A stretch of 64,000 bases of DNA from an uncultured Chloroflexia bacterium (GTDB lineage: Bacteria; Chloroflexota; Limnocylindria; Limnocylindrales; CSP1-4), in contig CAWFXA010000002.1 of assembly GCA_963819655.1 (NCBI GenBank), positions 416,001 to 480,000 on the forward strand, read 5' to 3'. Below are positions 12,587 to 18,553 of this stretch, piece after piece. The notes below the pieces were generated by a model, which saw only the letters and a list, made by a program, of their open reading frames with translations, had not been told where the DNA came from and made no database searches. A program made the position numbers and the translations under genes. Each line of letters starts with the position of its first letter. Positions within the stretch are counted from its first letter, which is position 1.

Positions 12587-13936
12587 ATGACTGTGATCGG
12601 GCGGTCGTGGAGCAGGCTGACGCTGCCGGGGAAGGTCGTGTTCACGGTCGTCCCGCTATTGCTGCTGCTGACGATCGGGGCGATCGCGCTGATCGTGATC
12701 TTCGGCCAGGCGATCGTCGACATCCTCGTCGCCAACCTGCCGATCGTCCGCTTCGTCGTCGCCGTCACGGTCATCCTGATCGCGACCGTCCCGACCGCGT
12801 TCCTGATCATCTACATGGAGATGAAGATCATCGCTCTGATGAATCTTCGGATCGGGCCGGACCGGGTCGGGCCGTTCGGGTCGCTCCTGTCAACGGTCCA
12901 CGGGTTGAAGGTCCTCATGAAGGAGGACTTCACGCCGACCGGCGCGGATTCGCTGGTCTTCACGTGGGCGCCGGTCGTCGTCTACCTCGCGAGCGTCCTG
13001 TCGCTGCTCGTCATCCCGTTCGCACCCGGCTTGTTCGGGTATGACCTCAATCTCGGGCTGCTGTATTTCTTCGCGATCGGCGGCCTGGCCGTGGTCGGCC
13101 TGCTGATGGCCGGCTGGTCGAGCTACAACAAGTACTCGCTCCTGGGCGGATTGCGCGCGGCGGCCCAGGTCATCAGCTACGAGATCCCGCTGACGCTGTC
13201 GGTCGTCGGCCTGATGCTCCTGGCCGGGACGATGAGCCTGAACACGCTCGTCGAGAACCAGACCGGCTGGTTCACCGACTGGTACATCTTCCAGCAGCCG
13301 CTCGGGGCTCTCATCTTCTTCATCGCGGCTACCGCCGAGGCGAACCGCACCCCGTTCGACCTGACCGAGGCCGACTCGGAGATCGTCGCCGGGTTCGCGA
13401 CCGAGTACTCGGGCATGCGGTTCGGGTTCTTCTTCTTTGCCGAGTACGTGAACGTGTTCATCGTCTCGGCCCTGTTCGTCACGCTCTTCCTGGGTGGCTG
13501 GAATGCGCCGTTCCCGTGGCCATGGCCGGTCGAGCTGAACATCGATCCAGCGTCGTTCAACATCGGCCTGCTGTTCATCCTCGGCCTGGTGCCGGTCGTC
13601 CTGACGCTGTTGTTCGGCGCGCCCTTCTACCTGCTGAACTCGCGCATCAGATGGTGGCAGGCGCTGCTCATCGGGTTCGTTCTTGCGAACCTGTTCATCG
13701 TCACGCTGCTCGGCGCGTGGGCGTACCTCGGACTGCCGTGGGTCGCCGGTATCCTCTGGTTCATGCTCAAGACCTACACGCTCGTGTTCACGTTCGTGTG
13801 GATGCGCGGCACCTTGCCCCGGGTCCGGATCGACCAGCTGATGGACTTCGCGTGGAAGTGGCTGCTGCCGGTGTCGCTGCTCAACCTGTTCGTGACGGCC
13901 GGCGCGATCGTCGTCATCAAGGGACTGGGTCGATGA
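12587..13936 (+). CDS. nuoH: NADH-quinone oxidoreductase subunit H (with extra hydrophobic segments)
   Basis: RIGPDRVGPFG, NKYSLLGGLRAAAQVISYE, NRTPFDL.EA..E and TLPRVRIDQLM motifs. Confidence 0.96.
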   Translation: MTVIGRSWSRLTLPGKVVFTVVPLLLLLTIGAIALIVIFGQAIVDILVANLPIVRFVVAVTVILIATVPTAFLIIYMEMKIIALMNLRIGPDRVGPFGSLLSTVHGLKVLMKEDFTPTGADSLVFTWAPVVVYLASVLSLLVIPFAPGLFGYDLNLGLLYFFAIGGLAVVGLLMAGWSSYNKYSLLGGLRAAAQVISYEIPLTLSVVGLMLLAGTMSLNTLVENQTGWFTDWYIFQQPLGALIFFIAATAEANRTPFDLTEADSEIVAGFATEYSGMRFGFFFFAEYVNVFIVSALFVTLFLGGWNAPFPWPWPVELNIDPASFNIGLLFILGLVPVVLTLLFGAPFYLLNSRIRWWQALLIGFVLANLFIVTLLGAWAYLGLPWVAGILWFMLKTYTLVFTFVWMRGTLPRVRIDQLMDFAWKWLLPVSLLNLFVTAGAIVVIKGLGR

Positions 13937-15908: not shown

Positions 15909-18553
15909 CCGACACCCTGGCCCGCCCAGAGCGCCTGCCCTCCGGGGCCCCGACCGAGACGTCGGCGTCGCCGGACTCGCTCGCCGAGCGCCTGCTCGAC
16001 ACCCAGGCGCCACAGCGACCGCAGTCGACTCCGCGCATCCGGATCGAGGTCGATGGTCGCGTCGTCGAGGGGTTCGAGGGCCAGACGATCCTCGAGGTCT
16101 GCCGCGACAACGGCATCGAGATCCCGACGCTGTGCTACGAGCCAAAGCTGCCCGGGTTCGGGGCATGCCGGATGTGCGTCGTCGAGGTCGAAGGCGAGGA
16201 ACACCCGCCGATCTCGTGCTCGCGCTCGTGCGAGGACGGGATGAAGGTCGAAACGCAAACAGAGGAGATCCGTCGCCTGCGCCGCACCAACCTCGAGCTG
16301 ATCTTCTCCGACCACAACGCCTACTGCCTGCCGCCCTGCCAGAACAAGTGCCCGAGCCACATCGACATCCCGGGCTTCCTCAAGGCGAATGCCGAGGGCG
16401 ACTGGCGGGAGAGCACCCGCATCTTCAAGCGGACGATCCCCTTCCCGTCGGTGCTCGGGCGGGTCTGCCCGGCGCCGTGCGAGGAGCACTGCCGGCGCGA
16501 CGAGGTCGACGAGGCGATCGCGATCCGCGACACCCACCGCTACGCGGGCGACCAGGTCCTCAAGTCGATGCTCGACGAGGACGTCGATCCGCCCGTGCCG
16601 TTCGAGCGCCAGGCTCCGTCCGGGCGACGGGCCGCCGTCATCGGCTCGGGCCCGGCCGGCATGGCCGCGGCGTACTACCTGCTCATCGCCGGTCACGACG
16701 TCACGGTCTTCGAGCGCGACCCGTCGCCGGGCGGCATGCTCCGCTACGGCATCCCGCAGTACCGGCTGCCGAAGGTCGAGGTGCTCGAGGCCGAGTACGA
16801 GTCGATCTCGCGGCTCGGCGGCACGGTCGTCTGCAACGCCGGTCTGGGCCGAGACTTCACGCTCGACGACCTGACGAACCAGGGCTTCGATTCGGTCATC
16901 GTGGCGATCGGCTGCTACGACACGAACAAGCTCGGGATCCCCAACGAGGACGCCGACGGCGTCATCGACGGCCTCGAATACCTGCGAACGGCGACGCTCG
17001 GGCTGCCGTATCCGGGCCACGTCGGCAAGCGCGTCGTGGTGATCGGCGGCGGCTTCACCTCGATGGACTGCTCGCGGACGTCGATCCGCCAGGGCGCGGC
17101 CGAGGTCACGCTCGTGTACCGCCGCGACATGAAGGACATGCCCGCGGCCGACGAGGTCCACGAGGCGATCGAGGAAGGCGTCACCACGATCTTCCAGGCG
17201 GGCCCGACGCGCGTCATCACGAACCCCAAGACCGGAGCCGTGACCGGCGTCGAGTTCATCCGGATGCAGCTCGGCGAGCCGGACGCCTCCGGCCGGCGGC
17301 GCCCGGAGCCGGCATCCGGCACCGAATTCACGATCCCCTGCGATCGCGTGCTGCTGGCCATCGGTCAGGGTCCCGAGCTCGACTGGATCGGGACGCCCGG
17401 CAATGAGGGGCCCGAGGCGACGAAGCAGCGTCGTCTCAAGGCGGACGCGGTCACGTTCTGGACGGGCCGGCCCGGCGTCTTCGGCAGCGGCGATGTGCGG
17501 ATCGGCGCGGCCACGGTCGTCGAGGCGGTCGCAGAAGGCCGGCGCGCGGCCTACGCCGTGGACGCCTACATGAAGGGCATGGACCTCGACGCCATCCGCA
17601 CGCGCCAGACGCTGGCCGAGCCGCAGCCCGAGTTCCTCTCGATCGTGCCGTTCACCGGCGAGATCAAGGAGCCGCGCTATCGGATGACGCCACTGCCCGC
17701 GGAGGCGCGCAACGACAGCTACATCGAATACGAGCTGCCGTATACGCGCGAGGCGGCGATGGCGGAATCGACTCGCTGCCTGCAGTGCACGTGTGAGGCG
17801 ATCGGGTTCTGCGACCTGCGCCGGCTCGGGATCGAGTACGGCACGACCCTCCAGACGCTCGAGCCGCAGTACCACCAAGGCGCCGGCTATCGGAGCGTGA
17901 CCGAGAACCGGTTCACCGGCATCAACCACGACTACATCCGCGACGACTCCCATGCGTTCATCCTGCGCGAGCCGTCGCGCTGCATCGACTGCGGGCGCTG
18001 CGCGAACGTGTGCGCCGAGGTCGTCGGGGCGGCGTGCTACGACTTCATGCGCATCGGCTTCGACACGCTGGTCACGACGCCGCTCGACATGAGCCTCAAC
18101 GACACCCCGTGCGTGTCGTGCGGTCGCTGCGCGGAGACCTGCCCGACCGGCGCCCTGATGCCCAAGCCGCGCATCCTCGAGAAGTACGAGGTCGACGAGA
18201 GCCGCTGCATCCTGTGCGGCATCTGCGTCGACGCCTGCCCATACGACGCGCTGCGCGACGGTGCCGACATCGAGCTCGCCCACACCGGCCGCTCGGAGCC
18301 GACGATCGACCTCATGGCGCTCGCCGCGATCGACCGCGAGACCGAGGTGACCTACATCCAGCGCGAGCGCGACTGGCTCACCCGGGCGCGTGCCGAAGGC
18401 CGCGTGGTCGACCAGTCGCGACTGCTGCCGATGCTGCCCCCGGCGATCGATGGCGTGCCGAGCAACGGCGGACGCTCGAACGGGAACGGCCACGGTCACG
18501 GTCACGACGGTCATGGGGCGGTCGCCGCGCTCGGCCCTGGCCGGCACGAGTAG
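15905..18553 (+). CDS. NuoG-N/GltD-type FAD-NAD(P)H Fe-S flavoprotein fused to the NuoI C-terminal half
   Basis: 2Fe-2S domain (IPTLC..GACRMC..C); GltD-like [31 protein letters not shown]..VYRR; two ferredoxin motifs; then [30 protein letters not shown]. Confidence 0.88.
   Translation: [882 protein letters not shown]

Follow-up and report, generated by a model that had tools for sequence, protein, structure and literature searches.

A complex I operon of Limnocylindria with nuoI divided into two halves around a flavoprotein cassette

The stretch of DNA analyzed here (the window; 64,000 nucleotides, positions 416,001 to 480,000 of contig CAWFXA010000002.1, GenBank assembly GCA_963819655.1) comes from an uncultured soil bacterium of the order Limnocylindrales (Chloroflexota; class Limnocylindria) and has a G+C content of ~70%. 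On its plus strand, from ~9450 to 24844, it carries an operon for respiratory complex I (nuo) with the 11-subunit gene order A-B-C-D-H-...-J-K-L-M-N, in which the slot of nuoI, between nuoH and nuoJ, is occupied by three tightly packed genes. We refer to their products as P0001 (13933-14610, 225 amino acids [aa]), P0002, and P0003 (15905-18553, 882 aa). The gene junctions overlap or nearly abut: P0001 begins in an ATGA over the nuoH stop codon (13933-13936), P0003 in an ATGA over the P0002 stop codon (15905-15908), and a GTGA lies at 18550-18553. All 11 core subunits (A, B, C, D, H, I, J, K, L, M, and N) are encoded, NuoI only as two halves. NuoB, NuoD, and NuoH exceed curated cutoffs in a profile scan. 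The ligands of cluster N2 in NuoB (a tandem Cys-Cys and two further Cys) are invariant in our alignment, and NuoD is of the quinone type, passing the NuoD equivalog NF004739.

Residues 9-82 of P0001 match NuoI (TIGR01971 positions 1-63 of 121, E = 1.3e-13; NF004536, E = 1.9e-14), with one cysteine motif (C56, C59, C62, C66, and P67). The complementary part of the family model is found in P0003, residues 756-800 of which match positions 71-115 of the 121 in TIGR01971 (70-116 at its widest). Jointly, the two proteins hold the eight Cys in two CxxCxxCxxxCP motifs expected of NuoI, and all cluster Cys of the two halves are invariant in alignments across two classes. For the C-terminal 142 aa of P0003 alone, NuoI is the best NCBIfam family (E = 1.6e-11, against 3e-8 for the best non-NuoI family), and the first four NCBIfam hits are all NuoI models. 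A further ~45 residues beyond the NuoI match still align to Nqo9 of Thermus (aligned over residues 73-180 in a search of solved structures with the same 142 aa), followed by a His/Gly-rich tail. In five other Chloroflexota operons of the 11-subunit type, both halves map head to tail onto one small intact nuoI gene.

An earlier reading of this DNA, made without database searches (the sequence-only reading), had proposed the 11-subunit order A-B-C-D-H-I-J-K-L-M-N, a first NuoI half with its Cys motif at 13933-14610 fused to a NuoE N-domain, a second half at the C terminus of the 882-aa protein just before nuoJ, and a cassette of E'-F'-G/GltD type fused to both halves, with nuoI split between its Cys motifs. 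The gene survey of the operon and the domain profiles agree with this description, and the alignment to TIGR01971 that it suggested as a check gave the complementary matches above. One detail changes: the C-half is where it was placed but not at the very end of the protein, given the Nqo9-aligned residues and the tail that follow.

Judged by its domains, the cassette is a trimmed NfnABC/StnABC module (the Bfu family), and NfnABC/StnABC are the best PDB matches of all three proteins. P0001 residues 125-186 match only positions 2-63 of the 145 in the NuoE family PF01257; this E' domain lacks the thioredoxin-like [2Fe-2S] domain and superposes on NfnC (9bp5_C) with a root mean square deviation of 1.0 A over 66 columns. 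The E' of two other families of the class still has a thioredoxin-like domain, but a degenerate one in which two of four cluster Cys are left (L023 9983-10250 and L029 10370-10659); loss of this domain across families looks like a decay series, the window's family having a short low-complexity tail instead. P0002 (F') is closer to NfnB/StnB (E-values of 1.6e-93 to 1.4e-90) than to the NuoF of complex I (1.3e-79 and weaker), and it reaches only 344.6 bits with the NuoF model TIGR01959 (cutoff, 558.65). It aligns only to the core of the B subunit (residues ~100-520), without the N- and C-terminal domains of Bfu B subunits; P0001 and P0002 each correspond to only part of their Bfu C and B counterparts. 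P0002 retains the Gly-rich flavin mononucleotide (FMN) loop and a GEET motif, and its N3-type [4Fe-4S] motif (residues 349-355, 15657-15677) reads C-G-K-S-I-P-C, the second Cys being replaced by Ser.

P0003 combines Fer2_4 (residues 44-119), Fer4_20 and Pyr_redox_2 (141-545), and Fer4_Nqo3 (686-751). Its PDB matches are 9bov_A (NfnA; E = 6e-159), 9n5u_A, and 8oh5_C (StnC; E = 1e-140), and residues 45-777 align to residues 4-698 of 9bov_A, as expected of a Bfu A-type subunit. Fer4_20 and Pyr_redox_2 both score over their cutoffs, as in GltD/NfnB-type proteins, and both dinucleotide-binding Gly motifs are present. These Gly motifs are invariant in the alignment, as is a YRR triplet, which we take to be a mark of NADPH preference. 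Coordinates of all features are collected in Table 1.

Table 1. Genes and domains of the nuo operon and the gene directly 5' of it (window coordinates)
Feature	Coordinates	Strand	Basis and remarks
Methyltransf_28 (PF02636) protein	7774..9099	+	E 2.8e-52; coordinates are those of the open reading frame; directly 5' of nuoA
nuoA	9452..9817	+	Open reading frame; tblastn matches to nuoA of related operons
nuoB	9808..10563	+	TIGR01957, 218.6 bits, over cutoff; start approximate; ~58-aa N-terminal extension
nuoC	10566..11114	+	TIGR01961, E 1.3e-31, 109.7 bits, slightly below cutoff 122.45; start approximate
nuoD	11107..12408	+	NF004739, 436.5 bits (cutoff 360); ~55-aa N-terminal extension
nuoH	12587..13936	+	449 aa; profile match; two-piece tblastn matches
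NuoI N-half (P0001 residues 1-82): N-terminal helix and first CxxCxxCxxxCP motif (14098-14133)	13933..14178	+	Profile, alignment
Linker between NuoI half and NuoE domain (P0001 residues 83-120), modeled as disordered	14179..14292	+	Predicted local distance difference test (pLDDT) <50 for residues 81-114
NuoE/NfnC-type N-terminal helical domain (P0001 residues 121-188) and low-complexity tail	14293..14610	+	Profile, structure superposition
P0002 (F'), NuoF/NfnB-core flavoprotein, 431 aa	14613..15908	+	Profile
P0003 residues 1-752, NfnA/StnC-like part	15905..18160	+	Profile, PDB matches
P0003 [2Fe-2S] domain	16034-16261	+	Pfam
P0003 GltD-type FAD/NAD(P)H domain with two [4Fe-4S] motifs	16325-17578	+	Pfam
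P0003 HydA/NuoG-type 2x[4Fe-4S] ferredoxin domain	17960-18157	+	Pfam
NuoI C-half (P0003 residues 753-835): second CxxCxxCxxxCP motif (18206-18241) and NuoI-specific segment after the motif	18161..18409	+	Profile, alignment
Variable His/Gly-rich C-terminal tail of P0003, including a Gly/His repeat	18410..18553	+	Sequence
nuoJ	18550..19149	+	Likely GTG start, overlapping the P0003 stop codon
nuoK	19146..19463	+	Open reading frame, tblastn
nuoL	19705..21696	+	Open reading frame, tblastn
nuoM	21693..23348	+	Open reading frame, tblastn
nuoN	23345..24844	+	Open reading frame, tblastn

The arrangement is strongly conserved. Of 529 related loci, the best 80 were examined: the P0001 motif is complete in every one of them, and so are all three ferredoxin-type motifs of P0003 in the 64 loci with full coverage (of the rest, 15 run into a contig end and one is covered in part). 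As many as 62 loci extend to nuoJ, and all 62 have the order H-I'E'-F'-G-J-K; the other 18 end earlier. The survey of relatives that the sequence-only reading had called for also met intact nuoI genes, in operons of other Chloroflexota. A P0001 match occurs in 41/41 relatives, own genome included (one is a fragment only). P0003, the GltD protein, equals NuoD in conservation: measured on the same relatives, its identity is 87, 74, and 58%, and that of NuoD is 88, 76, and 59%.

An assembly error, a frameshift, or a pseudogene would be the simplest way to dispose of a split core subunit, and the source is indeed a metagenome-type assembly in 3 contigs. However, the same layout recurs in independent assemblies (the 41 relatives and 62 loci above), the reading frames are uninterrupted, start codons overlap stop codons, and short contigs of other DNA and RNA libraries bridge junctions. 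Contigs of DNA run X2 bridge 13600-13954, 14158-14731, and 18349-18733, and those of RNA-library runs X15 and X16 bridge 15829-16002, 18118-18359, and 18049-18220, which is no sign of transcription. All of these contigs are short and come from relatives, no run contains half of the sampled sequence words, and uncovered parts carry no meaning; within these bounds, the misassembly at either junction that could have overturned the sequence-only reading is not seen at the several junctions bridged, other parts being uncovered. We consider an artifact extremely unlikely. Recoding or frameshifting that would join the halves into one chain was rejected, as the intervening 4 kb encodes conserved proteins.

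The two halves also appear to be all the NuoI these organisms have. In the own genome (3.49 Mb in 3 contigs, 91% complete), a profile search gave no NuoI match over the cutoff, the two best matches being the two halves, and the single NuoD family match is the one in the operon. Five relatives that share the split layout (four small genomes of a second family, 1.1-1.4 Mb and 91-93% complete, and one of a third family, 95% complete) have no intact NuoI, only the two halves, and no NuoF besides the operon-embedded one. A separate intact NuoI serving this complex, the other finding that would have spoken against the sequence-only reading, was thus found in neither the own genome nor the five relatives.

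Carriers were sought in a phylum sample of 401 genomes; the best 150 of 573 matches were considered, so the counts are lower bounds. Six unpublished genomes (G184, G212, G309, G266, G078, and G380) enter the overall tally only, and no claim is built on them. In the window's class, each of the 46 genomes sampled yields a match that extends over both the NuoI and the NuoE part of P0001 (four families, 33-100% identity), as do at least 16 genomes of three other families, in the Ktedonobacteria, at 27-33% identity; the latter include cultured Ktedonobacter, Thermosporothrix, Ktedonosporobacter, and Dictyobacter. Related loci were found in assemblies from soil, sediment, groundwater, and lake water. 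A search of representative proteins with P0001 returned 1654 at E <= 1e-3, 164 at E <= 1e-10, and 55 at E <= 1e-30, which gives a rough family size, many of these proteins being fragments or starting at Met73, and all being without taxonomy. Many database proteins start at the residue matching Met73 of P0001, and some are 560-730 aa long (P0159, P0193, P0229, and P0239); such starts and long forms may reflect miscalled genes near the ends of contigs or, in some lineages, fusions of E' and F'. The matches listed in a scan with the protein of the sister family are Limnocylindria-type metagenome-assembled genomes and a few records with other labels, which may be mis-binned; none of them is from Thermoleophilia.

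Fragmented operons show which subunits belong together. In a sister family of the same class (f4), B-D-I'E'-F'-G form one locus and C-H-J-K-L-M-N another, with H adjoining J; each of two f4 genomes has one NuoB and one NuoH, and the sole NuoB, together with a NuoD, stands with the cassette. A hydrogenase reading of this B-D cluster was rejected, as the sister-family NuoD (the only one read by eye for this purpose) has no NiFe Cys motifs. Three Ktedonobacteria have an ordinary operon of the 14-subunit type plus a dispersed second complex I set: an A-C-D-H locus without B and I, a B-I'E'-F'-G locus between unrelated genes, and a second nuoK elsewhere. The loci of the second set are L204 (G396:C4), L207 (G082:C2), and L208 (G169:C7); L025, L031, and L027; and L167 (Ktedonobacter racemifer). 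In these broken-up operons, NuoB and the split NuoI thus stay with the cassette, and it is just these genes that the partner loci are missing.

In Ktedonobacteria, among them Ktedonobacter racemifer, NuoB, the NuoI halves, and the cassette have only unrelated genes as neighbors, which would also suit a soluble NAD(P)H-oxidizing Fe-S flavoprotein working outside the pump, its place in the operon being mere co-location. We think this very improbable: in the window's class the genome has no other NuoB and no other NuoI halves, the partner loci A-C-D-H and C-H-J-K-L-M-N are without precisely the two missing subunits, P0001 retains the NuoI N-terminal segment from model position 1, and the cassette occupies the exact place of nuoI in all 62 loci extending to nuoJ. 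A NuoD tree of 17 rows, rooted at the midpoint only, puts the eight split-type sets on one side of a branch with support of 100/97, separate from ordinary 11- and 14-subunit forms. The tree allows a single origin of the split-type sets but does not prove it.

Overall, the observed anatomy, the complementary halves, their conservation, and the sole copy mark a real feature, and the enzyme is a variant form of complex I. We conclude, with a probability of roughly three in four, that it is the organism's only complex I, an enzyme that derives from the 11-subunit type and has an NfnABC/StnABC (Bfu) module placed in frame within nuoI, whose halves join in trans. In the 2x[4Fe-4S] fold, three of the four Cys ligands of each cluster lie in one motif and the remaining one in the other. 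The three-gene module sits between the two cluster motifs of nuoI, and with this 3+1 ligation the halves would have to come together in trans to form clusters N6a and N6b. Such reassembly, which the sequence-only reading had already put forward, is still deduced rather than seen, and is now backed by the absence of other NuoI-like genes, the invariant Cys, and the fragmented operons without nuoI and nuoB. Trans-assembly would clamp the flavoprotein module to the quinone module by both ends. Electrons of NADPH would enter at the flavin adenine dinucleotide (FAD) of the GltD domain, and those of NADH may enter at the FMN of F' if its three-Cys site still holds a cluster; the predicted route then runs through the NuoG-type clusters to N6a/N6b, N2 in NuoB, and quinone, driving proton pumping. 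The parts that serve bifurcation in Nfn/Stn (the [2Fe-2S] domain of NfnC and both end domains of NfnB) are absent, which suggests a plain NAD(P)H dehydrogenase arm, without bifurcation and not coupled to ferredoxin. The arm may have been re-acquired, as the sequence-only reading suggested, which fits the NuoD tree.

Several observations weigh against this reading. Neither NuoI half alone reaches the family cutoff that a single NuoI polypeptide would pass (50.6 and 43.9-44.9 bits, against 113 for TIGR01971), and when the C-terminal 142 aa of P0003 are compared with solved structures, the polyferredoxins FwdF and MvhB outrank NuoI by whole-sequence E-value. A better fit of this segment to generic ferredoxins, which would have told against the sequence-only reading, is seen in that ranking only; among NCBIfam families NuoI comes first. 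The FwdF/MvhB score is a sum of eight weak repeats, the best stretch giving 29 bits, whereas NuoI chains match in a single stretch of 41-48 bits that extends past the motif. Single-chain structure models are of low quality in the Fe-S regions, with pLDDT values below 50 for P0003 residues 567-882 and of 50-60 for the NuoI half of P0001. The AlphaFold2 model of whole P0003 (10-row alignment; mean pLDDT of 53.8) was set aside, and in that of P0001 (34 rows) only the NuoE domain is confident; a fold search with the latter is informative for the NuoE domain only, NuoI chains ranking 32-48 at probabilities of 0.33-0.60, which are not usable. A co-fold of P0003 residues 680-835 with P0001 residues 1-115 and four 4Fe-4S clusters, run without controls, scored 0.24 and 0.22 against a mark of 0.32 and speaks neither for nor against binding. 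Finally, the proteins, their clusters, and their activity are predictions from the genes.

The pairing of the ferredoxin-type motifs is a further point of doubt. P0003 has three and P0001 one, so that one P0003 motif is left over however they are paired, and Pfam Fer4_7 pairs the second and third P0003 motifs in cis, spanning residues 736-782 as one dicluster domain with the motifs 20 residues apart, as in small ferredoxins. If so, the last motif would belong to an ordinary ferredoxin domain, and the NuoI-like half of P0001 would be a decaying remnant without clusters. Yet this pairing would orphan the motif at 693-703, which would then still need a partner motif from outside. By homology to HydA/NfnA (which ends near P0003 residue 750, the HydA/NfnA chains continuing into another domain), the motifs at 693-703 and 736-747 form a domain of their own, and the P0001 motif is intact in every surveyed locus and across two classes at 27-33% identity, unlike a remnant in decay. 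Cis pairing is, in our judgment, highly improbable.

The flavin side raises a different concern. The second Cys of the F' motif is Thr (42 loci) or Ser (33 loci) in all 75 covered Limnocylindrales loci, where the motif reads C-x2-S/T-x2-C...C; one other family has Ala there, and the f4 family and Ktedonobacteria have Cys, the F' of the latter also keeping a Cys/His-rich C-terminal stretch (CPTGxC...H). F' is, moreover, the least conserved of the three cassette proteins (69, 52, and 43% identity to the same relatives). The three-Cys site could hold a 3Fe cluster, use another ligand, or hold no cluster, and with the Cys lost, the FMN site may be poorly wired or vestigial. The own genome also holds a full NuoE, a NuoF, and a short NuoG-like gene ~570 kb away, outside the window (G000:C2 ~1,002,100-1,005,000, minus strand; L191 6101-9000). 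This NuoE covers PF01257 positions 9-126, the NuoF has 426 aa and scores 454 bits with nuoF_fam (345 for P0002), and the NuoG/FdhA-type gene has Fer4_Nqo3 and Molybdop_Fe4S4 without a molybdopterin domain, with a PNPOx-family gene next to it. This clustered set, with its higher-scoring NuoF, could be the true NADH input, the embedded cassette being accessory (e.g., for NADPH only), regulatory, or a structural relic, as the lost Cys of F' might suggest. We regard this as unlikely, although less so than the other alternatives, as five of five relatives have no NuoF but the embedded one and yet keep the split layout, and the usual docking site would be taken by NuoG-type clusters covalently joined to the NuoI C-half. 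The distant cluster may be part of another dehydrogenase.

If the split enzyme is indeed assembled as we propose, the GltD-type site raises a more specific possibility: a proton-pumping complex I fed directly by NADPH through a GltD-type FAD, with its arm held by a two-polypeptide Fe-S subunit, as the sole complex I of a class whose genomes here stem from metagenomes of soil, sediment, and lake water. We hold this tentatively, at a little under even chances. It would come in two variants: NADPH could be the main donor, with the FMN site half-disconnected, or both sites could work, so that the pump doubles as a membrane-bound NADPH/NADH exchanger. We know of no NADPH-driven complex I that has been described.

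Other features of the operon and its surroundings deserve mention. The N-terminal extensions of NuoB (9808-9980) and NuoD (11107-11310), ~55-58 residues rich in Pro, Asp, Arg, and His, might help hold the unusual arm. NuoH has an extra hydrophobic stretch (residues ~310-390, 13510-13760), seemingly two additional membrane helices, which is common to the single-operon families and not found in the f4 family, Ktedonobacteria, or other Chloroflexota, where tblastn matches break. The C-terminal tail of P0003 is absent or different in other families. The gene directly 5' of nuoA belongs to Methyltransf_28, the family of the complex I assembly methyltransferase NDUFAF7/MidA. Located 3' of nuoN on the opposite strand are a trehalose-phosphatase family gene (24841-25794) and an AhpC/TSA-redoxin family gene with a CPPC motif (25791-26525).

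Complex I is among the best studied bioenergetic enzymes, and its 14 core subunits are generally treated as fixed building blocks. If our reading is correct, a core Fe-S subunit made from two polypeptides would show how the 11-subunit core can receive a new input arm, which is relevant to the old question of how complex I gained its NADH module; with a GltD-type site in the electron path, an NADPH-driven proton pump becomes a testable possibility. The design is present in all 46 sampled Limnocylindria genomes (the sole-copy check covers the own genome and five relatives), and the second complex I of cultured Ktedonobacteria makes bench work feasible. The first gene of the cassette is annotated in the sources as 'ferredoxin' or 'NAD(P)H-dependent oxidoreductase subunit E', so that metabolic reconstructions may score nuoI as missing. 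A split NuoI wired to a flavoprotein module would be an undescribed way of connecting an electron inlet to a proton pump. The sequence-only reading did not recognize the architecture as described, and our literature search likewise turned up no account of a split NuoI or of a nuo operon with this cassette (supplements and most subscription journals lay outside the search); neither is mentioned in the passages found of PMC3144371 and of the preprint 10.1101/2021.08.23.457424.

Compared with known systems, the pair of halves resembles NuoI/Nqo9/TYKY (NDUFS8), the subunit of N6a and N6b, in its position between nuoH and nuoJ, its N-terminal segment, both motifs, and the segment after motif two; it differs in being made of two polypeptides encoded ~4 kb apart, each fused to another redox protein. 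The cassette resembles NfnABC/StnABC (9bov/9bp5, 9n5u, and 8oh5) in its gene order C-B-A, its NuoG-type subunit with an inserted GltD domain, its NuoF-type FMN subunit, and its NuoE-type subunit. Those are soluble enzymes, whereas here the module is fused to NuoI halves within a nuo operon; furthermore, its C subunit has no [2Fe-2S] domain, its B subunit lacks the end cluster domains and one Cys, and its A subunit lacks the molybdopterin-like domain. According to the passages available from PMC10482914, StnC is a NuoG domain with an inserted GltD domain binding FAD and NADPH, and bifurcation requires the StnA [2Fe-2S] cluster together with the terminal domains of StnB; the abstract of PMC12018979 likewise addresses the roles of the missing domains.

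Three related kinds of gene cluster offer further comparisons. In the predicted Nuo-Bfu and Mbh-Bfu membrane complexes, as presented in the accessible part of PMC9304861, Bfu-type genes also lie amid the genes of complex I or of a hydrogenase, and their proposed role is to take over the input from NuoEFG. Those, however, are 14-subunit operons of other phyla, and their bifurcating BfuBC core is complete; that part describes no split subunit, and the words NuoI, NuoB, and GltD are absent from the main text. In the Mbx-like operons of Thermotoga and proteobacteria, in the passages seen of PMC4758237, a GltD-related flavoprotein likewise serves as the NAD(P) site in place of a NuoI-type subunit; there NuoI is said to be substituted, whereas the present operon retains NuoI in split form, and its complex I is of the quinone type and has partners of NuoE/F type. 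The 11-subunit complex I of other Chloroflexota has the same order and subunits (NuoD 45-47% identical) but an intact nuoI and no flavoprotein genes in the operon.

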